A stretch of 20,000 nt of DNA from an uncultured virus (IMG/VR IMGVR_UViG_3300025009_000092) (lineage: Duplodnaviria > Heunggongvirae > Uroviricota > Caudoviricetes), in the IMG/VR virus record IMGVR_UViG_3300025009_000092, one strand, 5' to 3'. Positions 313 to 19,679 of this stretch are shown here, in pieces; within the stretch, counting starts at the first letter, position 1, and each line of letters begins with the position of its first letter. Under the pieces are notes generated by a model. The model searched no databases, was not told the DNA's origin, and worked only from the letters and a program-made list of their open reading frames with translations. The position numbers and the translations under genes were made by a program.

Positions 313-1701
313 TCACCACGTCCCTACTCGTTTTGTATTAGTCAATTCATCAAAGGCATCGGCAGCCGCATCAACCTGATCCTTGAATTTGCCTTCCGGA
401 AAGTTTTCTGCCTCAAGCAAAAATGCTTCATTCCACGCGCCCTGTACCAGTTTTACATTGCCGGCCTGGGCTTGACTGGCCAATGGGGTGGCCCGGGTCT
501 CTTTCGAGCCTGTAACCGGCAATGTCTTTATTGTATAACCGGCCAATTCTTTGACGAAGGCCTTTGCCTGGCTCTTACCGGCCTGACCAGGATCTTGCGG
601 TAATCGAACCGGCACCAACTTACCATCCTGGCTGGCAATATTCTTGATGGAGTCGATTACTTTACTGGCATCAATTTGAAAACGAGTTGAATCTTCGATG
701 TAATAAACCCCGGCAACCTTGGCCATCCTGATCCCAGCGGTATATGCCGGCCCGCCATCTTTCTTCGCCTTTCGGTCTTCCGGATCTCGATCAGTCCCGG
801 CAAGATCCCATGCTCGAACTCTTTTTGCTCCGGCCGGCACTGCACTCACTATTTCAAAATCAGTCCGCTTGAAATAACTGCCGGCGGTTGGTCGTACATT
901 CCAATTCCCCTCAAGAAGCTGCGCCCGTTCAACCCGGGGGAGAGCGTTCAGTTTTGCAAGATAGGTCGGATCTTTCTGGAGGAGAATCTTATTATCATTG
1001 ATCGTTGAACGGATGAAGGTAAAGGAGAGCGGTTGAACGGGCGCATCAGCGGTACTGTATTTGTCGAGTAATTCTTGTTTTGAATCACCCCATATAACTT
1101 CATCGCCAAGAAGAATAAACCAGCGAATTACACCTGATCTACTGGCAATAACAAAACCATCTGGACCAATCCACCAGTCAATGAACTTCCGGACCCATGA
1201 ATCAGGATCAGGATTGCAGGTTCCTCGGATTCGGCCAGGGACACCAGACATGGACCGGTTCCGGGAAAGCATATACGAAAACTGCTTCCAGGTAAAGTGG
1301 CATATCTCATCAAAACCAATCAACGGGATCTGCGACCCTTGCCAGTCCAAGCGATTCTTCTCGTGCTCCATATGGGCAAAACTAATTGCCATCTTGGAGG
1401 GGAATCGGAAACACAATTCATTCTGATTCGGTTTGCCACCAATGGCCGGATACAACTCCGAGGCTTCATCCCACAACCCACCTTCTGAAGTAATCTGTTT
1501 GGTGGTCCGGCGGAAAATGACCGCACCGAATTTGGAATTGTTTACGTGATATAAGGGTTCCAGCAGAAGGGCGAATGATTTTCCCCCTCCGGCCGAACCA
1601 CCATAAAAAACAACATCTGCCCAACACGCAAGAAACTGAGTCTGCGGCCCCTCCTGGGGTTTTATCTCAATTACTTCTTGTTGAGGCATTGCTGCTGTCA
1701 T
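313..1701 (-). CDS. terL: Terminase large subunit
   Basis: PQEGPQ adenine-binding motif, Walker A GGSAGGGKS, Walker B IGFDE, TCNP coupling motif, C-terminal RNase H-like nuclease motifs RAWDLA and KDQVDA. Confidence 0.95.
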   Translation of the reverse strand: MTAAMPQQEVIEIKPQEGPQTQFLACWADVVFYGGSAGGGKSFALLLEPLYHVNNSKFGAVIFRRTTKQITSEGGLWDEASELYPAIGGKPNQNELCFRFPSKMAISFAHMEHEKNRLDWQGSQIPLIGFDEICHFTWKQFSYMLSRNRSMSGVPGRIRGTCNPDPDSWVRKFIDWWIGPDGFVIASRSGVIRWFILLGDEVIWGDSKQELLDKYSTADAPVQPLSFTFIRSTINDNKILLQKDPTYLAKLNALPRVERAQLLEGNWNVRPTAGSYFKRTDFEIVSAVPAGAKRVRAWDLAGTDRDPEDRKAKKDGGPAYTAGIRMAKVAGVYYIEDSTRFQIDASKVIDSIKNIASQDGKLVPVRLPQDPGQAGKSQAKAFVKELAGYTIKTLPVTGSKETRATPLASQAQAGNVKLVQGAWNEAFLLEAENFPEGKFKDQVDAAADAFDELTNTKRVGTW

Positions 1702-3458: not shown

Positions 3459-3716
3459 ATGAAGAAATGTTTATCCGATGCATTGGCTATCGACGAGTTG
3501 CGAGTAACACTGGAAAACATATCACATGATGATGATAGGGATATGGAAGATTATAGTAGGGAAGAACTGGTAGCGGAGGCTAATTATGTTCTTTCTTGCT
3601 ATTTTGAAGGTGGGCATATGTCAAATGATGAATTGAATTCAGATGATGGCGAAATCAGATCAAGCGCTAAAAAACAGGTAAAAATGTTACAAAATTATAT
3701 TAAAAAATATAGTTAA
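3459..3716 (+). CDS. Hypothetical acidic early protein (85 aa)
   Basis: GAGGAG RBS at 3446-3451 and ATG at 3459; first ORF after the early promoter and hammerhead. Confidence 0.75.
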   Translation: MKKCLSDALAIDELRVTLENISHDDDRDMEDYSREELVAEANYVLSCYFEGGHMSNDELNSDDGEIRSSAKKQVKMLQNYIKKYS

Positions 3717-3764
3717 ATAACAACCCCCAACCGAGCCCGGCGGAATCCGGCATTGGAGGATGGT

Positions 3765-3935
3765 ATGAAATTGGAAATAGTCAAATATGGGGACGAAAGA
3801 AATATCATCGTTAAATCCTGGAAAGAGGTAAAAGAACATTTACAAAGAACAAATCTCCCTCACTGCTTTGTTCTTTCTGAGATCAAAGGCCATAACTGCT
3901 CATTAACCAAAACTGGAAGATTACAAAGAGATTAA
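3765..3935 (+). CDS. Hypothetical early protein (56 aa)
   Basis: GGAGGA RBS at 3755-3760 and ATG at 3765. Confidence 0.65.
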   Translation: MKLEIVKYGDERNIIVKSWKEVKEHLQRTNLPHCFVLSEIKGHNCSLTKTGRLQRD

Positions 3936-4004
3936 CCACTTCGAAACCGGCTCCGGCCGGTCATCCAGGGTTCGGCTCCTGGGTCTGATGAGATAGCCGG
4001 TTAA
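3932..4004 (+). ncRNA. Hammerhead ribozyme, type II, with loop I/3'-tail pseudoknot
   Basis: GAAA 3943-3946; stem III ACCGGC-TCCG-GCCGGT; GTC triplet (cut after 3962); stem I ATCCAGG/CCTGGGT; core CTGATGA 3985-3991; open stem II TC/GA extended by TTAACC/GGTTAA; loop I CGGCT (3973-3977) is complementary to AGCCG (3995-3999). Confidence 0.92.
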
Positions 4005-4024
4005 CCAAATCAAAGGAGAATGTC

Positions 4025-4255
4025 ATGAATATCGAACGGGTATATCTTTGCAACGAAGCATTCGGGACTGTAAAAAAGCAGGTTCATGCTTGGATTGATG
4101 GTCAATTCTATCGGATTTTTGGCGAGGGAGATAAAAGGGAAATAAGAAAAGTCATCTCCGCAACAAAACAGCCAAAATTAACCGGAAAGAAATTGATCAA
4201 TAAAATTTTAGCCGCAGTCGATAGCAAACCCCTTCCTCCTGTTGCATGGTTTTGA
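4025..4255 (+). CDS. Hypothetical basic early protein (76 aa)
   Basis: AAGGAG RBS immediately after the second hammerhead; ATG at 4025. Confidence 0.75.
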   Translation: MNIERVYLCNEAFGTVKKQVHAWIDGQFYRIFGEGDKREIRKVISATKQPKLTGKKLINKILAAVDSKPLPPVAWF

Positions 4256-4276
4256 ACTTTAAAATAAGGACTCCCC

Positions 4277-4705
4277 ATGACCAGAATCAATATAGTCCCA
4301 CCCGCCGAGCTTTGCGACCAACAGCTTATAGCTGAATGGCGCGAGCTAACCAGAATCCCCAATGGTATTGTTGCCGGGAAGTATGTAATTGATTTGGAGC
4401 AGATCCCCAAACAATACACCGTCAGGACTGAAGATAATCCGGATGGCGGCAAAGGGCATATGAAATTCTTCTTCAATAAGTTAAAATTCCTGTATCGCCG
4501 GTATGAAGCAATCAGGGATGAGCTTGCCCAGCGGGGAATGCCGAGGCGGAGTATGTGGCCTGTTGGTGAATTTATGGTCTGGCCCACGATTGATAATATT
4601 CTTTGGAACGATTACGAGCCGACCCCGGAAGCAATGACCCTGAACAGAAAACGGATTGCGGAGAAGTTCCCCAAGAAACCAAGATATGCAAGGGAAAGGT
4701 TATGA
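4277..4705 (+). CDS. denV: Pyrimidine-dimer DNA glycosylase / T4 endonuclease V family
   Basis: MTRINIVPPAELCDQQLIAEWRELTRI matches the EndoV N-terminus (catalytic Thr2 and Glu23 region); G.GHMKFFFNKLKFL..RY..I..EL..RG. Confidence 0.93.
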   Translation: MTRINIVPPAELCDQQLIAEWRELTRIPNGIVAGKYVIDLEQIPKQYTVRTEDNPDGGKGHMKFFFNKLKFLYRRYEAIRDELAQRGMPRRSMWPVGEFMVWPTIDNILWNDYEPTPEAMTLNRKRIAEKFPKKPRYARERL

Positions 4706-4914
4706 AGAAATATCCACCGGCCTGGAACTTAACGGCAATCGAACTTGAACTAGCCATTCTGCGTGGGCTTCCGGCCACAGACCTAGTTGAGCATTGGGAG
4801 CGGCTGCAGAAAATCCAAGCCGATCTAGCCCATTTGTTTAAATCAGTTACTTATCAACGGGCCGTAAATTTAGCGGCTCAATCCGATATTATTGAGGAGG
4901 AAAATCATGAGTAA
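4702..4914 (+). CDS. Hypothetical protein (70 aa)
   Basis: ATGA overlap with the denV stop and a GAAAGG RBS; start reassigned from 4603 to 4702. Confidence 0.65.
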   Translation: MKKYPPAWNLTAIELELAILRGLPATDLVEHWERLQKIQADLAHLFKSVTYQRAVNLAAQSDIIEEENHE

Positions 4915-5050
4915 TCGAGCAGGTTTTTGGTTTATGGTTGGATTCATTCTTGTTATAATAATTTCCTTCATCACCTATGCCCCGGAAATTATGGGAGTCA
5001 AACAGAAACTCGAAAACAAGGCGGTGGGATATGGTCAGCTCAATTATTAA
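4907..5050 (+). CDS. Small membrane protein (47 aa, MSNRAGFWFMVGFILVIIISFITYAPEI...), not in the ORF track
   Basis: GAGGAGG RBS, ATG 4907, TAA 5048-5050; one hydrophobic segment. Confidence 0.7.
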   Translation: MSNRAGFWFMVGFILVIIISFITYAPEIMGVKQKLENKAVGYGQLNY

Positions 5051-5159: not shown

Positions 5160-5675
5160 ATGACCCCCAATCACACCAACCAGCTCGTTGAAAAACATAT
5201 TTCCCAAGTAAACAAACTCGCCTGGTCCTTTGCCAAAACAACTGGTCATGAATTTGATGACCTCAAGTCGGAAGGAACTATTGCAATGCTGAGGGCAATC
5301 AAGAAATTCAATCCAGATCATGGTTGCGAATTATCCACCTTAATTCATACCACCTGCCGGAATGCCATGGTTCAGTATTTGAAAACCCAGGGGAAGAAGT
5401 TCCCGGCAACGAATGAGGAAGTTGATGTAGCGGATCATAGGCCGAGTGGTCACCAGCGATATGAATTTCTTGAATCCCTCTCTTCCCTTGGGGCCGAGGC
5501 AAAACAGGTATTGCGGATCATTTTCGAGTCACCAAAGGAAATGACCAATATCACAGCGGGAAATTCTGCCGGCAATATCCGGAAGACCATTGAACGGACC
5601 ATGCGGGATATGGGATTCAAGGGCCGGGGGATCGAGCGGGCGTTTAATCAAATCAGATCAACTTTTCAGAATTAA
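5160..5675 (+). CDS. Phage-encoded sigma70-family sigma factor (region 2 recognisable)
   Basis: FDDLKSEGTIAMLRAIKKFNPDHGCELSTLIHTTCRNAM resembles the region 2 consensus (DL.QEG.IGL..A..KFDP..G..FSTYA...IR); AGGAG RBS. Confidence 0.82.
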   Translation: MTPNHTNQLVEKHISQVNKLAWSFAKTTGHEFDDLKSEGTIAMLRAIKKFNPDHGCELSTLIHTTCRNAMVQYLKTQGKKFPATNEEVDVADHRPSGHQRYEFLESLSSLGAEAKQVLRIIFESPKEMTNITAGNSAGNIRKTIERTMRDMGFKGRGIERAFNQIRSTFQN

Positions 5676-5891: not shown

Positions 5892-7798
5892 TGCAACTCC
5901 GCCAACTCATAAAGACCGATCCGGACTATACTATTGCCGCGCTTCTCCATCTTTTTGGTGGAGATAAGGTTTTCAAATGTACTGAGCGGAAGATCCTTAA
6001 AATCCTGGCGCGGCAATATGAATCAACCGGTTTGCTCTCTGATCCGCAGCTGCAAGCTGCCGCCAGAATACTGCCGAAATACCATGATAAGTTGGCCGGC
6101 TTGGAAGTTATTGCCTCTCCTGAAAAGAAAGAACTCCCCTCGCAATATGACAAAATCGCCTGGCTTGATGGTATCTCAATCCGCCTGAAAACCAATGACC
6201 GAGCCGATGCCATCCGCACCAAACAACTATTCAATCGACGATACCGGGCCAGCGATGATTCATATAGCTGTCAATTTACCCTTGATAATCTTCTCCACCT
6301 CAAGGAATGGGGGTTCTCTTTCCATCGGGATCTGCGCCGGAAGCAACGAAAAGTCTGCCGCAAAGCATCGACTCTAACCAATAGAATTGAGACCCCCGGC
6401 CTGCCTGGAACCCTCCGCGAATACCAAAACGAAGGAGTAAATTTCATCCACGCAAAAGGCGGCCGGGCTTTACTCGGGGACGATATGGGTCTCGGCAAAA
6501 CGGTCCAGGCTCTTGCATATTGTCATCTCATCAAAGAAACTCCGATCCTGATAGTCACAACTGGTGGATCAAAATTGAATTGGAGAAATGAAGTAAACAT
6601 CTGGCTCCCGGGAAGATCAATCTTTATTTGTAAGGGTCGGAAACCTGGTATCAAAAAGATCAAGGAGCAGGTTACAATAATCAATTACGATATCCTCAAG
6701 GCCTGGGAACCGGTATTATTAGCTACGGATTTCAAGGTATTGATTGGTGATGAAATTCACTATATTAAAAACCCCAAGGCCAACCGTTCAAAGGCATTCA
6801 AGAGCCTTGGTACCTCAATTGAAAAATTCATTGCCATGTCCGGTACCCCTTTTGATAACCGGCCTATCGAGTTGTTTGCCGCCGTAAATCTTCTTTCCCC
6901 CTGGCTCTTCCCTTCCTATTGGGATTATGCCAAGCGCTATTGTGGCGCTTATGAAGGAGATTGGGGATGGGTCGTAACCGGGGCCAGCCATATCCCAGAA
7001 TTATATGAAAAGCTGCAGTATATAATGATCCGGAGAAATAAGGTCGATGTTCTCAAGGAACTCCCTGATAAGATCCGTTCGATCATCCCGATTGAATATG
7101 ACGAAAAGATATACGCTGCCGGCATGAAAGAATTCAAAGCCTGGGCTGACCGAGACTGGAAAAGAGATGATGAAGGCCGGATGCAGACCTTTGAATATAA
7201 CCCGGCTGCAGCCATGGTCCAGATTGAAAAATTGAAGTTTGCCTGCGCGAAAAGTAAGATGCCGGCAGTTTATGAATGGATTGAGGAATTTCTTGAAACG
7301 GATGATAAACTGGTGGTTTTTTGCGAACATCAAGAGATCCAGCAAATGCTATTGGAGCAATTCAAAAAGATTGCCGTCCACTCCAAGGTTAAAACTTCCG
7401 TTTATGAATTCCAGAAATGTGATGCCTGCGGGGTAGTTCAGGACAAGCACAAAAGTGATCCTACCGCCTGTGAACAATATACTCCGAACCTGAAAGCAAG
7501 ATTATTTATCGGCGGGAAGGATGCCATTGAAGCAATCACCCTTACTGCCGCCAGGGCGACTTGTACCGTCGAATTCTGGTGGACCTGGACCAAGCACGCT
7601 CAGGCTGAAGACCGCGTGTACAGGATCGGTCAAGAGCATGATTCGGTGAATGCCTTTTATTTAATCGCTGACGGAACCATCGAAAATGATATAATAAAGC
7701 TGCTGGATAAAAAGAGGAAGGTTTTCGATGGAGCTTTGGATGGAATTGAAACGGAAAAAGATGATTTATTGGCCGGTTTATTGAAAAAATTAGTATAA
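5891..7798 (+). CDS. SNF2-family (SF2) helicase/ATPase
   Basis: LREYQ, LLGDDMGLGKT, DEIH, MSGTP, QAEDRVYRIGQ; start set at ATG 5891 (TAATG coupling). Confidence 0.93.
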   Translation: MQLRQLIKTDPDYTIAALLHLFGGDKVFKCTERKILKILARQYESTGLLSDPQLQAAARILPKYHDKLAGLEVIASPEKKELPSQYDKIAWLDGISIRLKTNDRADAIRTKQLFNRRYRASDDSYSCQFTLDNLLHLKEWGFSFHRDLRRKQRKVCRKASTLTNRIETPGLPGTLREYQNEGVNFIHAKGGRALLGDDMGLGKTVQALAYCHLIKETPILIVTTGGSKLNWRNEVNIWLPGRSIFICKGRKPGIKKIKEQVTIINYDILKAWEPVLLATDFKVLIGDEIHYIKNPKANRSKAFKSLGTSIEKFIAMSGTPFDNRPIELFAAVNLLSPWLFPSYWDYAKRYCGAYEGDWGWVVTGASHIPELYEKLQYIMIRRNKVDVLKELPDKIRSIIPIEYDEKIYAAGMKEFKAWADRDWKRDDEGRMQTFEYNPAAAMVQIEKLKFACAKSKMPAVYEWIEEFLETDDKLVVFCEHQEIQQMLLEQFKKIAVHSKVKTSVYEFQKCDACGVVQDKHKSDPTACEQYTPNLKARLFIGGKDAIEAITLTAARATCTVEFWWTWTKHAQAEDRVYRIGQEHDSVNAFYLIADGTIENDIIKLLDKKRKVFDGALDGIETEKDDLLAGLLKKLV

Positions 7799-7804
7799 TA
7801 AAAT

Positions 7805-9494: not shown

Positions 9495-10409
9495 ATGGAA
9501 GTTTTTGATCAAGATAAACCGAAAAGAAAAGTAAAGGGTATTTGGATTCCTATTGAAATTTGGGAGTGTAAAATCTTAACTCTGCAGCAAAAAGTATTCC
9601 TCGCCGAAATAGATAGTCTTGATCATGGGAATGGTTGTTATGCTAAGAATAAATGGTTCTCTAAACAATTTGGAATTTCTCAAGATCGAGCATCAAGGGT
9701 AATTGGAAGTTTGATTGATCTTGGATTGGTTTCTTCAAAACTTATTTATAAAACCAATTCAAAAGAAGTCGAAAAAAGATTGTTAAAAATGATTGCCCCC
9801 CTCCCGGTAGAAATACCTATAGGCCCCGGTGAAAGTACCGATACCCCCCCCGGTAAAAACACCGAGGATATAATATATAAAAAAGATAATATAGATAATA
9901 AAAGAATATATGGCAATGTTCCTGCGGAACAATTGCCGAATGATTCTAATGATAGAAGTCTTAAAGCATGGAGTGAAGTAATTTTAAATAACCCCTCCAA
10001 AATTAATTTAAATAAAACCCTCCAAAGAAAAGCAACAAAAGTTCTTTCCAGACTTAATCAACTTGGTTCCAAACCAAGAGGGTTCCGGCCAGTCCCTGAA
10101 AATTTGAAATATATAATATCCCGCCTGAAGGATGGATTTTCCGTACAGGATTGTTTCCAAGTTCTTGAAACAAAAATCCATGATCCTTGGTTTGAAGAAA
10201 ATCCAAAACTTTATAATCCAGAAACATTATTCCGCCCCAAAAACTTCGAAAAATACCTGAATGAAAAAGTACAGGACTATGAAAAGAAACAACCAGGGGT
10301 AGCCAATGGCTCAGGCATCTCCGGCAATATTGATTATTCACTCAGGCCAGGAAGAGACAAAAAAATAAAAGTCGACAAAACCAATTGGGGGAAATACGAT
10401 AATGAATGA
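9495..10409 (+). CDS. Phage replication initiator (N-terminal HTH; conserved phage replisome-organiser C-terminus)
   Basis: KGIWIP.EIW...L...K.FLAEIDSL....GCYA.N.WFS..FGIS...SRVI..L...G (wHTH); RLKDGFS..D...V...K...W......NPETLF..NFEKYLN; internal iterons; followed by a loader ATPase. Start set at ATG 9495 after GGAG. Confidence 0.88.
   Translation: MEVFDQDKPKRKVKGIWIPIEIWECKILTLQQKVFLAEIDSLDHGNGCYAKNKWFSKQFGISQDRASRVIGSLIDLGLVSSKLIYKTNSKEVEKRLLKMIAPLPVEIPIGPGESTDTPPGKNTEDIIYKKDNIDNKRIYGNVPAEQLPNDSNDRSLKAWSEVILNNPSKINLNKTLQRKATKVLSRLNQLGSKPRGFRPVPENLKYIISRLKDGFSVQDCFQVLETKIHDPWFEENPKLYNPETLFRPKNFEKYLNEKVQDYEKKQPGVANGSGISGNIDYSLRPGRDKKIKVDKTNWGKYDNE
9803..9910 (+). repeat. Putative replication origin: three iterons plus an AT-rich tract inside the initiator gene
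   Basis: CCCGGTAGAAATACC (9803-9817), CCCGGTGAAAGTACC (9825-9839), CCCGGTAAAAACACC (9849-9863), spaced 22 and 24 bp, each with a GGT-N6-ACC dyad, then an A/T-rich stretch. Confidence 0.75.
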
Positions 10410-11091
10410 TTTTGAAGATAAATTCCAAGAAGAAGTCAAAAACCAAAAATGTCAATGCGGGGATAAAGTAAGTTTCGGCTGCAACGATCAATGCCGGCTT
10501 TGCTACTATACCAATAAATTTCAATCCAAAAGTATCTTGACCCATCTTATCGATGCCGGCACCCCATCAAAAACGGCCCGTAGAGCGATGAGGATAGCCC
10601 AGGACGCAGCTGAAAAGGAATGGTCGGTCCTTCCTATCTCTATCCAAGAAAACTTCAAACAGAGCCTATTCCTATCCGGAGAAGCCAGGCAGGGGAAAAC
10701 GACCGCGGCGGTCTGCTCCATGCTCTATCATATGGAACAATACAATATGGTCAAGGAGCACCTGAATCCCAGAGCTACCTTTCTTTTTGAATCGTCTCCG
10801 CAGTTGATCCAGAATCTTCAGAAATCATTTAAACTCTCCGCCGGGGAAGAGCAGGCAATCATGGATAGATACAAGAATGTGGATTTTCTGATCTTGGATG
10901 ATTTTGGAGTGGAGAAACCAACTGAGTGGGCTTTCACGGTAATGTATTTGATTCTGACCCATCGATACGAAGAGGATAAACAAACTATTTTTACCAGTAA
11001 TTTCAATATTGACCAGATTGCTAAACGCTATGGAGATGAGCGATTGACCCGCAGGATCATGGATTGGTGTAATATTTTTGAATTGGCGTAA
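10402..11091 (+). CDS. DnaC/IstB-like helicase loader ATPase
   Basis: LFLSGEARQGKT (Walker A), FLILDDFGVE (Walker B), RY...K.TIFTSN, DERLTRRI. Confidence 0.9.
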   Translation: MNDFEDKFQEEVKNQKCQCGDKVSFGCNDQCRLCYYTNKFQSKSILTHLIDAGTPSKTARRAMRIAQDAAEKEWSVLPISIQENFKQSLFLSGEARQGKTTAAVCSMLYHMEQYNMVKEHLNPRATFLFESSPQLIQNLQKSFKLSAGEEQAIMDRYKNVDFLILDDFGVEKPTEWAFTVMYLILTHRYEEDKQTIFTSNFNIDQIAKRYGDERLTRRIMDWCNIFELA

Positions 11092-11137
11092 AATAAATCA
11101 GCAGAAAACTGATTGAAAAAGTATAATAGGATAGAAG
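11088..11137 (+). promoter_or_regulatory. Repeated phage promoter-like motif, copy 1
   Basis: GTAAAATA...AGAAAA...GAAAA-AGTATAATAGGATAGAAG; the 18-mer core is identical to 16836-16853. Confidence 0.75.
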
Positions 11138-11202
11138 AAAGATCAAAAGTAATTGAAATTAACCAATATCTGGAAATTAAATGTTTCATTTCTATCATAT
11201 AG

Positions 11203-11380
11203 ATTGGAGTGGCGAATGGGATTTTACGCGGGCTGTCTCAGCAGCTTGGCCGCGACCATTGCTCTCCGATAAACCAGGTCTGCTTGGCATCCGCCCCGAA
11301 AAGCGGGCCAGACCACGCCAACAAGATTATGGCTAGCTTCAAGCGCCGGCCAGACTGAGACTGCCCATTTGCGGCGCAAA
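11203..11380 (+). ncRNA. Unidentified structured RNA (module 1 of the non-coding block)
   Basis: Long hairpin 11203-11270 (ATTGGAG/CTCCGAT, AATGG/CCATT, CGCGG/CCGCG, GCTG/CAGC); hairpin GGTCTG/CAGACC; loop TCTCAG is complementary to CTGAGA (11355-11360); no credible ORF. Confidence 0.55.
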
Positions 11381-11466
11381 CATAAGTAGCAAGATACTAG
11401 AATATAATCTTCTGAGGAGTACTCAAAGACCCCATACCTGTAAAGGATGGGGTTGAGGCAGTGAAT

Positions 11467-11674
11467 GAGCATGGTGGCGGAATGGCAGACGCTAAACTAT
11501 GGGGTCATGCGGGATCGGAGACAGAGCCTTGCTGTAAGACAAGTCAGGTAAACACTCGGGAAGCAAGGGCGGTCCAAAAACTTGATGAAAATATTAACCA
11601 ATGTCCCACTGATGTGGTGCTGACTAACATCAAGCATATGCAAGCTGCAGGTTCAAGTCCTGCCCATGCTCGCA
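11467..11674 (+). ncRNA. tRNA-like RNA with a ~150-nt structured insert replacing the anticodon/variable arms
   Basis: Acceptor stem (G)AGCATGG/CCATGCT(C), T8-G9, class II-like D arm GCGGAATGGCAGACGC, perfect T arm GCAGG-TTCAAGT-CCTGC; no canonical anticodon arm and no encoded CCA. Confidence 0.8.
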
Positions 11675-11697
11675 ATTATTTATTTTGAGGACGAGTA

Positions 11698-11842
11698 CAA
11701 GCCAATTCAATCTAGGATAGGAGGTAGCGCCATGTAGAGCCCCTAAAAAGGGCAAGCAAGAAATCACACAGGCGATAGCCAACTAAGCAACAGATCACAA
11801 TCTGATCGGCCCAAAAAGAGCAGGCGCTCAGCAAAGGGCTTG
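11698..11842 (+). ncRNA. Unidentified multibranch structured RNA (module 3)
   Basis: CAAGCC/GGCTTG and AGCGCC/GGCGCT close three small hairpins: GCCC/GGGC, GGC-GATA-GCC and CAGAT-CACA-ATCTG. Confidence 0.5.
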
Positions 11843-11870
11843 CCCCATACCTTCCAAGGTTGGGGCTTTT
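11842..11870 (+). terminator. Probable intrinsic terminator closing the ncRNA block
   Basis: GCCCCA-T-ACCT-TCCA-AGGT-TGGGGC followed by TTTT. Confidence 0.6.
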
Positions 11871-11913
11871 GTGGTAAAAACAAAATCACTTCAAAATTCA
11901 TAAGGAGACCAAA

Positions 11914-12048
11914 GTGAAAGACGATGATTGTACCCCTCTTGATGGAATGGTATGGTGGGCAAAATGTTTTTGGTTCGTATATCTCACTTTGTCAACGACT
12001 ATTATAGTTTGTGGAATAATTTATTTAAAACAACTTATCTGGGGATAA
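11914..12048 (+). CDS. Small membrane protein (44 aa, GTG start), not in the ORF track
   Basis: TAAGGAG RBS, GTG 11914, TAA 12046-12048; hydrophobic segment CFWFVYLTLSTTIIVCGIIYL. Confidence 0.65.
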   Translation: MKDDDCTPLDGMVWWAKCFWFVYLTLSTTIIVCGIIYLKQLIWG

Positions 12049-12719: not shown

Positions 12720-13589
12720 ATGAAAATAATCAAACCAAGCGTTCAGTTTTTCGGAACAGTACCGACAGAATACAATGCCGCCCTCAAGTTCATTGAGATG
12801 GCCGGCAGAACTTGTTATAAGTCAGAAGACAAGATCACTGAAGATAGCGCAGAAGGATTTGTTAAGAAATTGATCAAGGCTGGGCATCTGGCTATGGTTG
12901 AACATTCGAATTTTGTAGTGAAAATACGTAATGTTGAGTGCGATTGGGAATCAATAGACTTACCAAATAAATATCTCAATGGCCTTGAAGATACGGTGAC
13001 CGATTGCGCTTATGTTGGTGGTAATTTGACCGCTTGGTTCAATGCTGTAACTTTAGAAGGCTTCTCCCCAATATTTGACCCATTCTGCGAATTATATGAT
13101 GAATTATTCAACTTAGGTTTTACCGAAGGCGGCACTGATCATTGGCAACCCTGCCCTCACGACGAAATTCCCAAAGAACTCCACAGATACAGTGCCAAGA
13201 TCATCTGTGATCGCGGAGTCAGTCATGAGTTGGTGCGTCACCGACCTTGTTCTTTTGCACAAGAAAGTACTAGGTATGTGAATTACGGCGGCAAGGATAT
13301 GGAATTTATTGAGCCGGCTTACCCTAGTGAGTGGAATTTTTCTGCATACAGAGCTTTTGATAGAGTCTGTAAAGATGCAGAATACTACTACAACTTGCTA
13401 CTTGATAATGGTCTCAACCCACAACAAGCCCGAGCAGTCCTGCCTAATGCTCTTAAGACCGAGATTGTGGTTACGGCCGATGCAGCCGAGTGGTCACATA
13501 TCAGAAAGCTACGAACAGCTAAGTCGGCTCATCCTGATATGCAGCGAGTTATGAACATGATGCCTTGGGAGGAGTTTTTGAATGATTGA
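12720..13589 (+). CDS. thyX: Flavin-dependent thymidylate synthase
   Basis: AGRTCY.S, GH...EH, RGVSHELVRHR..SFAQESTRY, ARAVLPNA, LR....AHP. Confidence 0.95.
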   Translation: MKIIKPSVQFFGTVPTEYNAALKFIEMAGRTCYKSEDKITEDSAEGFVKKLIKAGHLAMVEHSNFVVKIRNVECDWESIDLPNKYLNGLEDTVTDCAYVGGNLTAWFNAVTLEGFSPIFDPFCELYDELFNLGFTEGGTDHWQPCPHDEIPKELHRYSAKIICDRGVSHELVRHRPCSFAQESTRYVNYGGKDMEFIEPAYPSEWNFSAYRAFDRVCKDAEYYYNLLLDNGLNPQQARAVLPNALKTEIVVTADAAEWSHIRKLRTAKSAHPDMQRVMNMMPWEEFLND

Positions 13590-14202: not shown

Positions 14203-15735
14203 ATGAGTTCCCAATTCATCGAACGCCGCATTGCCATCGGCCTCATTACCAACGACCAATACCTGCGGGAAATAGCCCCCGTATTTAATGCCGATCTCCT
14301 CAAGGATGAAGCGGCAAAAAAGATTGCCTCCTGGTGCATCCGCTATTTCAATAAGCACGGAAAAGCACCCCTGGAAGATATCGGGATCATCTTCGAATCA
14401 TATACCAGGAGGGGGAAACTCAATCAGGAAGAATCGGAGGATATTGGTAGCATCCTTGACGACCTCAGTGATGAATATCAAACCCAGGCCGAGAACAACC
14501 CGGAGGTCCTGATTGACGAAACTTTCGCATACTTCGATGAAAACAGGCTAGTTCGCCTGGCGGATGATATCAAGGCCGAGGCCCAGCGGGGGAACCTGTT
14601 AGAGGCCAATGTACTGCTTGCTACTAATAAGCAAATTCAACGGGCGGTAAATATAAACCATGACTTCTTCGCCGATGATATTACCAGGACGCAAAAAATA
14701 TTTGAAGACATCCAGGAGCCAATTGTCGAATACCCTGGTAAGCTCGGGCAACTCTGGAACCGGCATTTCGTTCGTGGAGGTTTTGTTGGATTACTCGGCC
14801 CTGAAAAAACTGGAAAAACATGGTGGCTGGCAGACATTGGATTCCAGGCCCAACGAACCGGTAAAAAAGTAGCCTTCTTTGCGGCCGGGGATATGAACCG
14901 GGAGGAAATGGAACTCCGGAAATATATCTATATGGCCAGGAAATCCAACGAACTTGAATATTGCGGGCAATTGATGATCCCGGTGGTTGATTGTTTCTGG
15001 AATCAGAATGGTCAATGTCCGGCTGGTTGCGGTGAATCGCCAATCCGGGGAGATAAACCACCGGCCTTCAAGGATCTCCAACAAGTTTATAGCGATGCTT
15101 TTGAACAATATGGAAGTGACCATACCCCATGCACCAAATGCCAGGGCAAAAAAGAATTCCTAGGTGCCCCATGGTTCAAGCTCCGAGATAAAATAGTCCC
15201 CCTGAACTGGAAAGAGGCATATAATATTGAGCGAAAATTCCAAAAACGATTTCGTGGGGCTGGTTGGAACTTTGCCGATTATCCGGCTTATACCCTCAGT
15301 CCGAAAATGATTGATAATCAATTGGCCATCTGGCACGAAGGCGGCTTTACAGCCGATGTTGTGTTGATTGATTATCCGGATATCATGGCCCCAGACCTGG
15401 AAGACCAGCGAATGGATTTCCGGCAGAAAGAGAATATGAAGTGGTTGAAGATCCGGGCGTTGGCCCATAAGTGGCATTGCCTCGTTGTTTGCCCTACACA
15501 AGCCGATGGAGCCAGTTATGGCAAGGACTGGCTGGATCTCTCCAACTACAGCGAGGATAAGCGAAAGTACAGCCATACAACGGCCTTCTTTGGTCTCAAT
15601 CAAACCGATGGGGAAGCCGAGTTGGGGCTATTCAGGATTAATCAATTAATTGTTCGAAGTGGAAAGCGAGGAAAGAAGTATGCAACTATTTGCCAGCGGC
15701 TCGAAATGGGTCGGCCATTTCTAGGATCATATTAA
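14203..15735 (+). CDS. DnaB-like (SF4) replicative helicase with a Cys-rich insert
   Basis: Helical N-terminal domain (IERRIAIGLITNDQYL), Walker A GPEKTGKT, VLIDYPD (Walker B), VVCPTQ, late Arg motif IVRSG. Confidence 0.8.
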   Translation: MSSQFIERRIAIGLITNDQYLREIAPVFNADLLKDEAAKKIASWCIRYFNKHGKAPLEDIGIIFESYTRRGKLNQEESEDIGSILDDLSDEYQTQAENNPEVLIDETFAYFDENRLVRLADDIKAEAQRGNLLEANVLLATNKQIQRAVNINHDFFADDITRTQKIFEDIQEPIVEYPGKLGQLWNRHFVRGGFVGLLGPEKTGKTWWLADIGFQAQRTGKKVAFFAAGDMNREEMELRKYIYMARKSNELEYCGQLMIPVVDCFWNQNGQCPAGCGESPIRGDKPPAFKDLQQVYSDAFEQYGSDHTPCTKCQGKKEFLGAPWFKLRDKIVPLNWKEAYNIERKFQKRFRGAGWNFADYPAYTLSPKMIDNQLAIWHEGGFTADVVLIDYPDIMAPDLEDQRMDFRQKENMKWLKIRALAHKWHCLVVCPTQADGASYGKDWLDLSNYSEDKRKYSHTTAFFGLNQTDGEAELGLFRINQLIVRSGKRGKKYATICQRLEMGRPFLGSY

Positions 15736-15746
15736 AAGGAGAGGAT

Positions 15747-16121
15747 ATGTCAATCACAGTAACCAAGAAGTTTAGTTTTTGTTATGCTCACCACTTGCCG
15801 GAGTATGATGGAGACTGCTCCCGTGTTCATGGCCACAATAGTGCCGTTGAGGTCGAATTCACCAATGAGTATGGTCAGCTGCCAAGACCATATCCGGGCA
15901 TGGTAGTCGACTTCAAGGATATCAAGAAAATTGTCGGGCCGATTATTGATCAGCTTGATCATCGGTATTTGAATGATATTCTTGACCCCTTTAATCCCAC
16001 CGCCGAGACCATTGCAAATTGGATTGCCGGCCGGATAATGGAGACCCCACTTGGTCCGGGATTGATCAGGGTGCAGGTTTCGGAAACTGACGATTCTTTT
16101 GCCACCTGGAGAAAAGCATGA
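15747..16121 (+). CDS. queD: 6-carboxy-5,6,7,8-tetrahydropterin synthase
   Basis: FCYAHHL, CSRVHGHN, MVVDF, LDHRYLN, PTAE, VSET; AAGGAG RBS with ATG 15747. Confidence 0.95.
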   Translation: MSITVTKKFSFCYAHHLPEYDGDCSRVHGHNSAVEVEFTNEYGQLPRPYPGMVVDFKDIKKIVGPIIDQLDHRYLNDILDPFNPTAETIANWIAGRIMETPLGPGLIRVQVSETDDSFATWRKA

Positions 16122-16774
16122 AAACGAAGATTAATATCATGTCAATTTTCTTTTCAATCTCCGGAGAGGTCAATATCTGGCCGCAAGGAGCCCCGACCAT
16201 ATTCATTCGTTTTGCTGGTTGCAATTTGGCTTGCCACTATTGCGATACCAAACAATCAATCAATGCTGCCGGTACCCAGATGACTGTCGAAGAAATAGTC
16301 GAGCAGGTCAAATCTTTTGATTGTCAGCGGGTTTTGATCACCGGCGGGGAACCCCTATTACAAAAGAATGGTCTACAGGCATTAATCAGAGAACTTGATA
16401 TCCAGGGATATGTGACTAGTGTTGAAACAAATGGATCTCTTCCCCTGGATATCCTTCCTGAGCATCCGGATTGCTGGGTGGTCGATATCAAGATGCCGGG
16501 GAGTGGATATTTTGATTCTATGATCCTGCCGGAAAAACACCTGGAAGATGCCGAAGTCTGGGATAATTTGATTTTCAAATTCCCAATTGAGAATGAACGA
16601 GACTTCCAAACCGCGGCCGATATTATAAAGGATCTGAGCGAACACGCGGCCGGATTCGCTCTTTCCCCGATTTCCCCCTTGACTGCAATTGAATTATGGG
16701 GATGGATGGTCAGAGCCGGATTGACTCATTGTATCCTAAATACCCAGATTCATAAGTTTTTAAAATTAGAATAG
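16118..16774 (+). CDS. queE: 7-carboxy-7-deazaguanine synthase (radical SAM)
   Basis: IFFSISGE, FIRFAGCNLACHYCDT (CX3CX2C), ITGGEP, VETNG, QIHK. Confidence 0.95.
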   Translation: MKTKINIMSIFFSISGEVNIWPQGAPTIFIRFAGCNLACHYCDTKQSINAAGTQMTVEEIVEQVKSFDCQRVLITGGEPLLQKNGLQALIRELDIQGYVTSVETNGSLPLDILPEHPDCWVVDIKMPGSGYFDSMILPEKHLEDAEVWDNLIFKFPIENERDFQTAADIIKDLSEHAAGFALSPISPLTAIELWGWMVRAGLTHCILNTQIHKFLKLE

Positions 16775-16802
16775 ACTGCCGGCAGAATTATTTTGCCGGA
16801 AT

Positions 16803-16853
16803 GTAAAATATTTCCGTAGAAAATCATTCGAAAACAGTATAATAGGATAGAAG
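16803..16853 (+). promoter_or_regulatory. Repeated phage promoter-like motif, copy 2
   Basis: GTAAAATA...AGAAAA...GAAAACAGTATAATAGGATAGAAG, matching 11088-11137; preceded by the hairpin CCGGCAGAA/TTTTGCCGG (16779-16799). Confidence 0.75.
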
Positions 16854-16915
16854 ATAAAAATGGTCAGTGTGATCATTTGCCAGGATTTCCAAACCAAGAA
16901 TAAAGGAGAATTGCC

Positions 16916-17719
16916 ATGAGTGAACCCAAACGCCCCGAATTGATTGCTGCCGCAAAGGAATTGAACACCCTGCTGGACCCCGATCCCAAGATCAAGACGG
17001 TCGGCGTAAAGACTGATGAATTGACCAAGGCTATTGTGGTAGCGGCCGGCCTGCTCGATAAGGGGGATTCCCTGACGACCGAAACCCACGCCGTCCTCTG
17101 CGCCCTGGAAGTTGAGTTACCGGAAGGCCTGGTCATTGCCGCTGCCGATGCGGATGATGAAAATGGCGATAATGCCCAGGAAGAGAAAAAGCCCGAGCCG
17201 GCAATTGAGCGGGAAGACCTGGTTGCCCTGATCGAAGAAATGAACAAGGTCATGGATCTGGACCCGGCAATCGAAGCCAGTGAGAAATCAAGCATCGACG
17301 GTCTCAAGAAACTGATCCATGATAATTGCTACGATAAGGGCGAGTGCCAGGTCTTTGATACCGACAAATTCAGCCCCGAAGCATGGGAAACCTTGACGGT
17401 CCTGGGTGTCCGGCCGGTAGTTACCAAGAAGGCCAAGGATAAGCCGGCAAAAGCCGAGAAGGCAGAAAAGCCCGCCAAGGCCGGAAAAGCGGAGAAGGCT
17501 GAGAAGCCGGCAAAGGCCAAGAAAGAGAAAAAGGAAAAATCCCCCGGCACCCCTTCCAATAAGCGGATTGTTTATGACCTCTTTGCGGCCGGCGAGAAGG
17601 ATCAGGCAAAAATGCTGAAAGCCACGAATGATGCTGTATCCGCCACGACCATCAAGATTTGGATCTCCATGTGGGCCAAGGGTAAAAACCTGCCGGCAGG
17701 TATCAAAGCCGCCGAATGA
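16916..17719 (+). CDS. Hypothetical protein: duplicated acidic domain, Lys/Ala-rich (histone H1-like) repeats, small C-terminal domain
   Basis: AAAGGAG RBS; KPAKAEKAEKPAKAGKAEKAEKPAKAKK; two similar N-terminal units. Confidence 0.8.
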   Translation: MSEPKRPELIAAAKELNTLLDPDPKIKTVGVKTDELTKAIVVAAGLLDKGDSLTTETHAVLCALEVELPEGLVIAAADADDENGDNAQEEKKPEPAIEREDLVALIEEMNKVMDLDPAIEASEKSSIDGLKKLIHDNCYDKGECQVFDTDKFSPEAWETLTVLGVRPVVTKKAKDKPAKAEKAEKPAKAGKAEKAEKPAKAKKEKKEKSPGTPSNKRIVYDLFAAGEKDQAKMLKATNDAVSATTIKIWISMWAKGKNLPAGIKAAE

Positions 17720-18123
17720 AACGAATAGCCTTCATAGGTTGTTCAAAGAGGAAGAAAACCTCCCCCTGCCAGGCAAAGGACCTGTATCAGGGGGAGTTGT
17801 TTAAAAAATCTCTTCGTTATTGCCAACAAGAAAAATTCGACGAAATATATATTCTGTCTGCCAAATATGGATTGGTCTTTTTACAAGATATCATCCAGCC
17901 GTACGAAAAAACCCTGAATACATTTACAGAAGACGAAAAGAAAAATTGGTCCGATAAAGTAAAACAACAAATTTTAGAAAAGAATATTTCCGGGGAATTT
18001 TGGTTCTTTTGCGGAAGCAATTACCATAAACATTTTGAAGGTGAAAAACCTTTATTTGGTTTATCCCTTGGATATCAATTAAACTGGTTCAATCAAAAAT
18101 TAAAAAAGGGGTTCAATCTATGA
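17716..18123 (+). CDS. DUF6884-like protein
   Basis: IGCSKRK.....AKDLY.G.LF....Y......YILSAKYGL.....I.PYE.TL; AT-rich; coupled to both neighbours. Confidence 0.75.
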   Translation: MKRIAFIGCSKRKKTSPCQAKDLYQGELFKKSLRYCQQEKFDEIYILSAKYGLVFLQDIIQPYEKTLNTFTEDEKKNWSDKVKQQILEKNISGEFWFFCGSNYHKHFEGEKPLFGLSLGYQLNWFNQKLKKGFNL

Positions 18124-18782
18124 AAATCGTCTTATCGCTATCCGGCGGGATGGATTCCGCCGCCCTGCTCGGGACCCTGCTCGGGACTGGCCATGAAGTT
18201 TTTGCCGTCTCTTTCTTCTATGGTTCCAAGCACAATCAGTATGAATTGGAAGCCGCCCGGAAGCTGACCGAGCATTATGGTATAAAGCGGCAGTCAATGG
18301 ATATCTCCGGGATCTTCGCCGGGTTCAAGTCGGCCCTGCTGAAAGAGGATTCCCGGTCGATCCCGGAAGGTCATTATGAAGACCGTACTATGGTACAAAC
18401 GGTCGTACCTGGGCGGAATATGATCTTCTCGGCTATCCTTGCGGGGTTGGCCCAATCATTCGAGTACGACGCGGTAGCGCTCGGTATCCATGCAGGGGAT
18501 CATACCATCTATCCGGATTGCCGGCCAGTCTTCAAAGAAAGCATGGATCTGGCCATTAAAACCGCTTCTGAGTATTCGGTTTCCTTGTATGCCCCTTTCC
18601 TGGGAATGAGCAAGGGAGATATCGTCAAGGTCGGGATGGAGCACAAAGTTCCTTTTAAATTGACCCGCACCTGTTATAAGGATCAGTCTTTGTCTTGTGG
18701 AAAATGTGGATCATGTACCGAAAGATTGGAAGCATTCGCCGAGAATGGCCTGGTTGATCCGATTCAGTATGCGGTAAAGTAA
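18120..18782 (+). CDS. queC: 7-cyano-7-deazaguanine (preQ0) synthase
   Basis: SLSGGMDS PP-loop, VPGRNMIF, YPDCR, TRTCY...CGKCGSC.ER zinc site. Confidence 0.96.
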   Translation: MKIVLSLSGGMDSAALLGTLLGTGHEVFAVSFFYGSKHNQYELEAARKLTEHYGIKRQSMDISGIFAGFKSALLKEDSRSIPEGHYEDRTMVQTVVPGRNMIFSAILAGLAQSFEYDAVALGIHAGDHTIYPDCRPVFKESMDLAIKTASEYSVSLYAPFLGMSKGDIVKVGMEHKVPFKLTRTCYKDQSLSCGKCGSCTERLEAFAENGLVDPIQYAVK

Positions 18783-18794
18783 ATAGGAGGCTCC

Positions 18795-19679
18795 GTGAAA
18801 AGAATTATTACAAATGAAGAAGTAGAACTTGCTTGCCTGCCAATAATAAAATCAATCCCAAAAGATGAACTAGGGTTTGGTGGGCCGAGTTTTTATGGTG
18901 TGCCGCGCGGAGGAATTGCCCCTGCATATATGCTGGCCGGATTAACCGATGGTTCCGTAGCGGATCATCCTAAAAAAGCCGACTATATTATTGATGACCT
19001 GATTGATTCCGGCAGTACCCGAGATCGATACGCCAAACTCTATCCCGACACTCCATTCATTACTCTTTTTGAAAAAACCGATCCGATGGAATGGCTGGTC
19101 TTCCCCTGGGAAGTTACCGAGCAGGGCCATGACACCTCTGCGGAAGATATCCCATCTCGTTTTTTAGAATTTATCGGAGAGGATTTAAATCGGGATGGAT
19201 TAAAAGAAACTCCAAAACGAATGATTAAAGCCTGGAAAGAAATTTTCAGCGGATATGAACAAAATCCATCTGATGTTATAAAAACTTTCGAATCAGATGG
19301 ATATGATCAAATAGTCCTTTTACGGGATATTGAATTATATTCCATGTGCGAACATCACGCATTACCATTTGTAGGCCGGGCACATGTCGCATATATTCCT
19401 GGAGGCAAGGTTATCGGTATTTCAAAGCTCGCAAGACTGATTGATATCTTTTCCAAAAGATTACAAATTCAAGAAAGAATAGGAGATCAGGTGACCTCAA
19501 TTCTCATGAATGAATTGAATGCCCAGGGAGCCGCCTGCATAATTGAAGCAGATCATTTCTGTATCAGAATGAGGGGCGTCGGAAAGCAGCATTCTACTAT
19601 GGTAACCTCTTCAATGAAAGGCGTATTTTTAACTAAGCCTGAAGCAAGATCCGAGTTATTGAGTTTGATCCGGTCATGA
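18795..19679 (+). CDS. folE: Fusion of a type I (Gpt-like) phosphoribosyltransferase domain and GTP cyclohydrolase I
   Basis: N-terminus: YGVPRGG, IIDDLIDSGST (PRPP loop), WLVFPWE. C-terminus: RDGLKETPKR, SMCEHHALPF.G, GISKLAR, LQIQER, HFCIRMRG. AGGAGG RBS with GTG start. Confidence 0.93.
   Translation: MKRIITNEEVELACLPIIKSIPKDELGFGGPSFYGVPRGGIAPAYMLAGLTDGSVADHPKKADYIIDDLIDSGSTRDRYAKLYPDTPFITLFEKTDPMEWLVFPWEVTEQGHDTSAEDIPSRFLEFIGEDLNRDGLKETPKRMIKAWKEIFSGYEQNPSDVIKTFESDGYDQIVLLRDIELYSMCEHHALPFVGRAHVAYIPGGKVIGISKLARLIDIFSKRLQIQERIGDQVTSILMNELNAQGAACIIEADHFCIRMRGVGKQHSTMVTSSMKGVFLTKPEARSELLSLIRS

Follow-up and report, generated by a model that had tools for sequence, protein, structure and literature searches.

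A small RNA of tRNA-like shape is annotated in phage T5, and it forms, with its neighbours, the closest described parallel to the locus treated here. In the T5 record (AY543070), the misc_RNA at 30501-30644 (RNA1) is annotated as a 'tRNA-like stable RNA with unknown functions', RNAI and RNAIII (30394-30500 and 30284-30389) are each entered as 'stable RNA with unknown functions', and a tRNA-His adjoins them. T5 RNA1 reached 24 bits with the Rfam tRNA model and, where an anticodon loop would be expected, carries a 47-nt insert. We compared with it a G+C-rich block in a 20,000-nt stretch of DNA from an uncultured tailed virus (Caudoviricetes; IMG/VR record IMGVR_UViG_3300025009_000092); this whole stretch is hereafter called the window. 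The block, which an earlier note on this DNA had described as promoter-driven, non-coding, structured RNA, lies between the gene of a DnaC/IstB-like loader (10402-11091) and a 44-codon gene starting at 11914. It was split into three modules: M1 (~11181-11460), with a conserved small open reading frame (ORF) and covarying RNA helices; M2 (11467-11675), an RNA shaped like tRNA-Leu but without an anticodon arm; and M3 (11716-11873), a hairpin-rich RNA that ends in a probable terminator. The explanation that we favour, by a little better than an even chance, is that the block is an accessory unit running from promoter to terminator and cut into separate RNAs at its tRNA-shaped module.

M2 is like T5 RNA1 in its tRNA-Leu frame, with U8, a Leu-type D arm (CCGGAAUUGGUAGACGG in T5, GCGGAAUGGCAGACGC in M2), a canonical T arm and paired ends, and also in its company: RNA1 is lined up with further small RNAs that are not tRNAs and with a tRNA, and M2 stands between M1 and M3. 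The features of sequence and structure by which we would recognize the T5 RNA1 type were found in M2, namely a covarying acceptor stem (two compensated pairs relative to L239, described below), the Leu D arm, the canonical T arm and a variable, structured insert. RNA1 differs in being 144 nt long, with an anticodon-stem-like helix and a long variable-arm hairpin, whereas M2 has an 8-bp acceptor, a branched insert of ~150 nt and no anticodon stem; the two share no sequence similarity beyond the tRNA frame. The T5 RNAs are recorded as stable RNAs, whereas the stability of M2 is presumed. T5 thus has an annotated RNA of this kind, for which Rfam 15 contains no family. Our literature search found nothing on T5 RNA1, on anticodon-less Leu-shaped phage RNAs, or on motifs like those of M1 and M3. 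The accessible part of PMC4810235 cites papers on T5 tRNAs and holds nothing on RNA1; a preprint on three bacterial tRNA mimics, in the part available, concerns other Rfam motifs.

Phage tRNA-Leu (class II) shares with M2 an identical D-arm 17-mer, the T loop UUCAAGU, U8 and G18G19. M2 departs from it in having no anticodon arm, in its 8-bp acceptor with a covarying extra pair, and in that no CCA is encoded in the window. A73 is the Leu identity base; the base after the acceptor stem of M2 is, unlike A73, a G. A tRNA-Leu interrupted by a group I intron in the anticodon loop was considered and rejected: there are no anticodon-stem halves, the insert measures ~150 nt against a core of ~200+ nt, and the window contains no Intron_gpI match. 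Bacterial tRNA-Sec combines an 8-bp acceptor with a 5-bp T stem (8/5), as M2 does, but M2 has neither the 6-bp D stem nor the UCA anticodon of tRNA-Sec, its anticodon arm being absent altogether. Allo-tRNA-like RNAs (8/4, 9/3) are set apart from M2 by its T stem of 5 bp. The available part of PMC7609411 reports that the 8-bp stem of tRNA-Sec weakens EF-Tu binding ~100-fold, which fits an RNA not meant to decode; it also reports irregular allo-tRNA-like sequences with extra junctions in soil metagenomes, which may be regulatory.

Transfer-messenger RNA (tmRNA) resembles M2 in that a large structured interior is enclosed by ends that fold into the upper half of a tRNA (excerpts of PMC3985003 and PMC3929946). 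Identification of M2 as a tmRNA was rejected on several grounds: ARAGORN called none, Rfam tmRNA models gave no match, the D arm is complete, pair 3 is C-G and not G3:U70, and the acceptor has 8 bp. No tag reading frame was conserved between the window and L239. In plant mitochondrial t-elements and mascRNA, a tRNA-shaped fold within a longer transcript is cut by tRNA-processing enzymes, by which the ends of the adjacent RNAs are fixed (according to the portions available of PMC1920247 and PMC11693755); these are eukaryotic or organellar and short, unlike M2, for which such processing is presumed. The large phage RNAs GOLLD and ROOL have in common with the whole block a phage context, a tRNA nearby and G+C-rich helices. 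The block differs from them in its independent modules, in parts of only 120-210 nt and in having no Rfam match.

Modular arrangement of the block

Relatives of the block were gathered via the flanking proteins, via DNA patterns from the block and by one metagenome scan. The contig of L122, L135, L144, L145, L247 and L252 was identical to the window and was left out of the counts. Seven variants of M1 were obtained (window, L123, L127, L139, L154, L228 and L230), and what lies behind M1 varies among them. A tRNA-like RNA follows in three (window, L123 and L228), in which the stem ends enclose 205, 118 and 119 nt, respectively, of mutually unrelated interior. The M2 slot of L127 is occupied by a true tRNA-Asp(GTC) (ARAGORN; Rfam 39.2 bits) and that of L230 by a small hairpin and TTTT. 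In L154, M1 is followed by the terminator only, M3 being missing, and then by the same downstream genes; in L139 it is followed by a protein gene, with neither M2 nor M3. A different 66-kb phage contig (L239) carries M3, the terminator and an M2 of the window type, in that order and with no M1 nearby, which is a rotation of the same units. Because relatives carry M1, M2 and M3 apart or in another order, the block is, on this comparative evidence, a series of separate cassettes that were gained, lost and reordered independently, and not one giant RNA. The earlier note had offered either a new large non-coding RNA or a processed operon of such RNAs; the first is largely excluded by the shuffling of the modules, and the comparisons point to something near the second.

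The family of cassettes is narrow. Scans of IMG/VR with a pattern of the M2 T arm and acceptor and with the M3 core added L239 and L240 only. A covariance model of M1 (R1) found no further copy in 50 other thyX-linked loci, and one of M3 (R2) found none beyond the known copies in 74 sources, with which nhmmer agreed. No match to the block turned up when 50,697 phage records were searched by blastn, and the nearest virus record (G001) was likewise without one. Some diverged relatives were seen elsewhere: in the coded wastewater run X5 (labelled RNA-Seq, probably DNA; contigs only), relatives of M1, of the M2 end and of M3 lie on separate short contigs. They are 80-95% alike to M1, the M2 ends and M3 and say nothing on transcripts; given their source, the cassettes are not confined to groundwater. 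On L125/L126, the contigs of L139/L142, an extra gene of ~1.3 kb (3716-5040) lies between the DnaC-like gene and M1 and encodes repeated Cys-x-x-Cys units resembling 'CDYCGKEF'.

At the upstream end of the block, the promoter-like motif TTGAAAAAGTATAAT occupies 11113-11127 on the plus strand. Its −10 hexamer TATAAT (11122-11127) lies where the earlier note had placed a promoter motif, near 11120, and there is no good −35 at 17 nt. The window contains two copies of the pattern TTGAAAA-N(1-8)-TATAAT (7781-7799 and 11113-11127), as compared to 0.03 expected by chance, and on this account a phage promoter at 11113-11127 is plausible. The other copy precedes the gene at 7805, and TTGAAAAAGTATAAT is conserved in relatives that keep the DnaC-like gene upstream. 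A generic sigma-70 scan did not list 11113-11127, since it has no −35 hexamer at the usual distance. An alternative promoter-like site, TGGAAA-16-TATCAT at 11171-11198 (plus strand; 9/12 matches), is conserved in sequence in all seven variants and is weak taken alone (three sites found, 2.7 expected). A start from it would fall near 11205, the first base of helix P1 of M1, and would exclude the start of the ORF.

The downstream end is marked by a hairpin followed by TTTTGTGG (11842-11874, plus strand; stem 11842-11866, then UUUUGUGG), so that the terminator-like hairpin which the earlier note had seen at 11842-11870 was found again together with its T tract. It makes a reasonable intrinsic terminator. 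A rule-based terminator scan called none at 11842-11874, owing to the bulge in the stem. The terminator stem has a near-copy upstream, hairpin 1 (11430-11452, plus strand; CCCCAUACCU-GUAA-AGGAUGGGG), a GNRA hairpin with a bulged A. There are therefore two copies of the stem CCCCATACCT...GGGG, one at 11430-11452 that lacks a U tract and one at 11843-11865 that has it, and they flank M2 and M3. In L154, which is without M2 and M3, a single hybrid hairpin has the left flank and arm of hairpin 1 and the right arm and U tract of the terminator. A single copy of this make-up would be expected either from recombination of one copy with the other or from an insertion in which the hairpin had been duplicated. 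The start of the M2 insert (11497-11506, CTATGGGGTC) also resembles the 3' arm of the repeated hairpin, is complementary to 11428-11437 and is kept in L239; it could be a recombination scar or take part in an alternative pairing.

M2, a tRNA-Leu-shaped RNA without an anticodon arm

Acceptor, D and T arms of M2 (11467-11675, plus strand) were located in cloverleaf order, in agreement with the tRNA-like element of the earlier note. The acceptor strands GAGCAUGG and CCAUGCUC (11467-11474 and 11664-11671) form eight pairs, not seven, and are followed by U8 and G9 on the 5' side and by the tail GCAA on the 3' side. The Leu-type D arm (11477-11492) contains G18G19 and has a stem of 3-4 bp and a loop of 9 nt; the canonical T arm (11647-11663) has a 5-bp stem closed by the UUCAAGU loop. 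Both the acceptor and the T arm formed without constraint in the minimum free energy (MFE) fold. The D-arm 17-mer GGCGGAATGGCAGACGC matched at least 121 loci, and ARAGORN placed a tRNA-Leu over 22 of the 25 that were checked. Across the ten elements compared, the acceptor pairs vary in type: the outermost pair (−1:73) is G-C in the window, L123, L228 and L240, C-G in L239, and U-A in L003 and L063. After the acceptor stem, L123 and L239 read ACCA and the window reads GCAA. In L123, the D arm is replaced, and the Leu-type D arm is therefore lost from that variant. A T-rich run, TTATTTATTTTG, lies directly 3' of M2 (11676-11687, plus strand); the elements of L123, L228, L239 and L240 have a T run behind them as well.

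The place of the anticodon arm is taken by the branched insert, with predicted helices 11512-16/11571-75, 11527-33/11562-68 and 11581-87/11628-34 and a hairpin at 11606-11617, and for this reason M2 cannot decode. Run over the whole window, ARAGORN called neither a tRNA nor a tmRNA, and the Rfam tRNA model did not match the window copy of M2. The L228 copy reached 33.2 bits with that model (cut-off 29), with 17 anticodon-arm positions skipped over 62 nt. An ARAGORN run that allowed introns and used a lowered threshold proposed a tRNA-His(GUG) with a 114-nt intron in the window and a tRNA-Ala in L123; both were rejected for their poor anticodon stems. The interior of M2 is ~90% identical between the window and L239, with identical runs of 20-30 nt. 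Four pairs changed on both sides between these two and are still paired (two in the acceptor, one in 11512-16/11571-75 and one in the hairpin at 11606-11617), and two further pairs changed on one side to or from G-U. Based on this identity and on the compensated pairs, we conclude that the insert is under selection.

M2 was probably derived from a phage tRNA-Leu. L240 contains, at 647-726, an 80-nt tRNA-Leu(CAA)-like gene whose acceptor stem and T arm are those of M2 (Rfam tRNA 43.8 bits); it has an 8-bp acceptor, C at position 33 and a short variable region, and it likely represents the ancestor form. Elements on unrelated phage contigs (L003/L019, L041, L063 and L065) have paired ends, the same D arm and odd interiors of 115-173 nt. 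Three of them reach the Rfam tRNA cut-off, only as frames. In phage SPP1 (X97918), a scan for the acceptor and T arm gave no such element and Rfam gave no tRNA-like row at E ≤ 0.5, both tests being insensitive to large inserts.

Some other phage tRNA-Leu genes with unusual interiors were observed. The one in L073 (minus strand) has an intact anticodon stem and, inside the anticodon loop, a 77-nt insert that contains a T-arm-like hairpin and is far below group I intron size. The tRNA-Leu genes of L083 (317-493) and L058 span 279 and 342 nt; L083 gave a sub-threshold Intron_gpI row (38.5 bits, cut-off 50) and L058 no intron row.

The small reading frame of M1 and the RNA motifs of M1 and M3

The block had been thought to hold no credible ORF. 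That claim is doubtful: an ORF of 51 codons at 11181-11336 (plus strand; ATG start, TAG stop; 51 amino acids, MFHFYHID...QQDYG) is open in all seven variants, in which it has 51-54 codons and identical start and stop columns, with TAG or TAA as the stop. It starts 22 nt before 11203, where the earlier note began its block, and its conservation weakens the premise of a wholly non-coding region. The indels in the ORF are of 3 and 6 nt, and its predicted product is included in public protein sets (P0001-P0005). When the substitutions of a pair were redistributed at random, a stop arose in 48-95% of trials, depending on the pair. By our own estimate, which assumes independence and includes the in-frame indels, the joint chance of an open frame is ~1e-3 after six frames. 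Synonymous changes occur at otherwise fixed places (CGG/CGA, CCG/CCA, TAT/TAC and GGC/GGT). Counted by codon position, the substitutions between the window and L154 number 20/22/22, with no third-position excess, and the ratio of non-synonymous to synonymous differences (pN/pS) lies at 0.25-0.54 inside one lineage and at 0.8-1.05 in the other comparisons. By codon usage the ORF (0.09 per codon) scores no differently from spurious frames (0.08-0.13), and the Shine-Dalgarno (SD) sequence is weak (GGAA). AlphaFold2, given an alignment of eight ORF sequences, returned a predicted local distance difference test score (pLDDT) of 58 and a predicted template modelling score (pTM) of 0.16, values that are uninformative. 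There was no PHROG match below E = 0.02, and a profile search of 1.84 billion representatives gave only two related clusters. Weighing these results, we think it somewhat more likely than not that the ORF is translated. We read it as a frame whose openness is maintained although its sequence may drift, either as a fast-evolving small protein or as a leader whose translation matters. Other frames in the block, among them one of 82 amino acids on the minus strand (11224-11472) and one of 75 within M2 (11461-11688), are each confined to some variants and not conserved, and were rejected.

The 5' domain of M1 lies inside the ORF (11204-11269, plus strand). Its helix P1 (11204-11219/11256-11269) encloses P1a (11227-11231/11250-11254) and P1b, the latter with the loop UCUCAG at 11236-11241. 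Under a model of P1, P1a, P1b, P3 and P3a, 97.4% of 273 cells were paired across the seven variants and 7 of 39 pairs had changed on both sides. None of 500 shuffles reached the pairing or the covariation score, and slid controls were 31-48% paired, with 0-2 such pairs. Helices 1-3 make up 23 of the pairs, six of them changed on both sides, with 94-98% of cells paired. The folding energy of the 5' domain had a z-score of −1.8 to −4.2 across the seven variants, and L127 has one C-A mismatch in P1b. The 3' element P3/P3a (11343-11377, plus strand) consists of GCGCC...GGCGC enclosing GGCCAG-ACUGAGA-CUGCCC and is nearly invariant in all seven variants; the closing pair of P3a covaries (UA in five, GC in two). 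As GCGCC-GGCCAK-ACUGAGA-MUGSCY...GGCGC it is the most conserved stretch of the block, within the M1 tail (11337-11460; z −2.95, 1/200 shuffles equally good). The loop ACUGAGA (11354-11360) is complementary over 5 bp to CUCAG of P1b (11237-11241), and both are invariant in all variants. The P3 element, which begins 7 nt downstream of the ORF stop (11334-11336), is non-coding, more conserved than the adjoining ORF, and without a match in Rfam. The M1 variants comprise only 2-3 lineages, and the covariation events are accordingly few.

M3 (11716-11873, plus strand; ~155 nt) opens with a perfect SD sequence, AGGAGGU (11719-11725), and a start codon followed at once by a stop (AUG UAG, 11732-11737). 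Downstream lie the predicted hairpins H1 (11739-11753), H2 (11771-11780), H3 (11793-11807) and H4 (11808-12/11836-40, enclosing H5 at 11818-11829), and then the terminator. Six variants were compared. In each, AGGAGGU or GGAGGU precedes the AUG by 6-7 nt, and the sense codons of the mini-ORF number 1 in the window, 4 in L123, 1 in L127, 4 in L230, 8 in L228 and 7 in L239. Of the 31 pairs in the M3 model, five had changed on both sides; 94.6% of cells were paired, none of 500 shuffles scored as high, and slid controls had 0-1 such pairs. The hairpin just 3' of the start codon changes in sequence with compensation, two of the five hairpins covary, and the last is the intrinsic terminator. Longer or tag-style frames, sought by eye in M3, had no start codon and were not kept in frame between variants; M3 matches no Rfam family. 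The start-stop site could load ribosomes, act as a minigene like bar of phage lambda, or form part of a switch together with the terminator.

The structure of the block is thus supported by compensatory changes and not by folding energy. The earlier note had called the structure ornate, and on the energetic side this was not upheld, with z-scores of −1.64 for the whole block (1/20 shuffles equally good), −0.67 for M2 and −1.97 for M3; only the M1 tail stands out. The covariation that it had named as a check is present among the homologs of M1 and M3, in the proportions given above.

Competing explanations and genomic setting

Under the explanation favoured here, the unit would be transcribed from the TTGAAAAAGTATAAT promoter, and M2, in the tRNA slot, would be recognized by host tRNA-processing enzymes and released as a stable RNA. 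RNase P would cut on its 5' side; its 3' end would come either from a tRNA 3' nuclease or from transcription ending in the T run. The same release would define where the upstream RNA ends and where the downstream RNA begins, and the two hairpin copies that flank M2 and M3 may be sites where cassettes were inserted or deleted by recombination. Co-transcription, processing, stability and all functions of the block RNAs are suggested by analogy with tRNA operons, by the tRNA-like processing signals and by the stable RNAs of T5. A number of observations weigh against this explanation. M2 folds no better than its shuffles, and the structure of its interior is drawn from two sequences, the window type having one relative. 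In L139, two A-C mismatches break P1a and both are synonymous in the ORF, which favours coding over RNA structure at that place. Variation is shallow, with about 2-3 lineages of M1, and the covariation counts are small and partly inherited. Each module has a possible end signal of its own (hairpin 1, the T run after M2 and the terminator) and there are weak internal promoter-like sites, so the parts could be separate transcripts. An 8-bp acceptor, as in tRNA-His, would also shift or hinder RNase P cleavage at +1.

A single large ornate RNA of the GOLLD or ROOL kind, ~670-750 nt long and with its modules folding around an embedded tRNA-like domain, would account for a promoter-like motif and a terminator that bracket the block and for a G+C content that is raised throughout; GOLLD, moreover, is reported near or containing tRNAs. 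The G+C content is indeed 0.45-0.53 over 11100-11999, as compared to 0.35-0.37 on either side, as the earlier note had remarked. Such an RNA is nevertheless very improbable and is largely excluded by the shuffling of the modules, which stand alone or reordered in four of the seven M1 variants and in L239. One variant has an ordinary tRNA-Asp in the M2 slot, the first 156 nt are the conserved ORF, the whole block folds no better than its shuffles, and there is neither joint conservation of the modules nor long-range pairing above shuffles. In cmscan against Rfam, the interval 11050-11950 gave two chance-level rows up to E = 10 and nothing else, neither GOLLD nor ROOL among them, so that the lack of a family match noted by eye held under a database search. 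A serious rival, although we hold it to be unlikely, takes M1 as a translated leader or small gene joined to an RNA switch and a terminator, the whole forming an attenuator or regulatory leader for the downstream operon, with its small membrane-protein gene and, two genes beyond, thyX; M2 and M3 would be cargo inserted into the terminator hairpin of the leader. Translation of the ORF would melt P1, P1a and P1b and free CUCAG from the ACUGAGA loop, and a ribosome stopping at 11334-11336, so close to P3, would alter the folding of the downstream hairpins. L154 has just such a layout, with promoter, ORF, P3, one hairpin with a U tract and the same downstream genes. The helices inside the ORF covary and the stop codon is placed 7 nt 5' of P3; an ORF that stays open in all seven variants while its sequence drifts without third-position bias is what would be expected if the act of translation mattered more than the peptide. 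Against an attenuator, no covarying alternative (antiterminator) pairing was found, the pairing of the CUCAG and ACUGAGA loops is invariant and hence neither supported nor contradicted, M1 of L139 precedes a protein gene with no terminator, and the SD sequence of the ORF is weak.

Somewhat less likely still is that the block is debris, with M2 a decaying tRNA-Leu, M3 the 5' remnant of a lost gene, the rest an untranslated region of a small protein gene, and no RNA function beyond termination. The loss of the anticodon arm, three unrelated interiors on one frame and an M2 folding energy like that of shuffles would be natural in this case, as would an SD sequence and ATG in M3 followed by a stop after 1-8 sense codons, and a family as narrow as seven M1 and six M3 variants, with no match in scans of genome contigs. 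Decay does not readily explain an M2 interior conserved across two phages with its four compensated pairs and two changes to or from G-U, nor an M3 conserved between the same phages, with five compensated pairs, nor a non-coding P3 element that has changed less than the ORF beside it. The T5 record, furthermore, lists a comparable tRNA-like RNA as a stable species, and anticodon-less Leu-shaped elements recur in the unrelated contigs L003, L041, L063 and L065.

It is a doubtful proposition, of about the same standing as debris, that M2 and its look-alikes form a widespread, uncatalogued class of phage RNA within a recombination-driven cassette system built on repeated hairpins and containing two new RNA motifs, the P3 loop element and M3. 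If it were true, the upper half of tRNA-Leu would be a carrier that secures processing, stability and perhaps aminoacylation while displaying an exchangeable structured payload, such as a guide, or a decoy, directed against a host factor, and M3 could serve as a ribosome-binding decoy.

The design of T5 RNA1, a tRNA-Leu upper body with an insert for the anticodon, recurs in an unrelated groundwater phage. Three inserts on one frame, with an ordinary tRNA or nothing in the same slot of sister genomes, amount to a natural swap experiment, which argues that frame and payload are separate functional units. For genome scans the locus holds a warning: what looks like a G+C-rich 'non-coding' block may contain a short ORF that is conserved, and may consist of several cassettes in a row instead of a single large RNA.

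The window is a stretch of tailed-phage genome whose DNA is present in groundwater metagenome runs; no RNA run was listed for the block. Its large terminase gene (313-1701, minus strand) encodes a protein at most 49% identical to any record; there is accordingly no close cultured relative, and since the terminase relatives are phages of unrelated hosts, no host call was obtained. Scans of genome contigs with an ORF alignment and with the M3 core pattern gave no matches and thus no host either. Other genes of the window encode an SNF2 helicase, a primase, an HNH endonuclease, a sigma-70-type factor (5160-5675; a sigma-70 region-2 protein) and, besides the DnaC/IstB-like loader, ThyX (12720-13589). 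The gene that follows the block (11914-12048, plus strand; GTG start, SD sequence AAGGAGA) encodes 44 amino acids with one hydrophobic stretch; it always lies 3' of the terminator and is no part of the finding itself, and family searches with the protein gave no family. The thyX gene is two genes beyond this small membrane-protein gene.

Two further features of the window were observed. A type II hammerhead ribozyme lies at 3939-4002 (plus strand; Rfam 44.5 bits, cut-off 37), in the gap between the ORFs 3753-3935 and 4025-4255, and Hammerhead_II was the sole Rfam match at gathering scores in the whole window. A preQ0/7-deazaguanine gene set occupies 15690-19679 and comprises a QueD-like PTPS, a radical-SAM QueE-like protein, a DUF6884 protein, QueC and GTP cyclohydrolase I (FolE). 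Phage genes of this kind usually serve DNA modification. The tRNA-Asp(GTC) in the M2 slot of the sister phage L127 is a queuosine tRNA.

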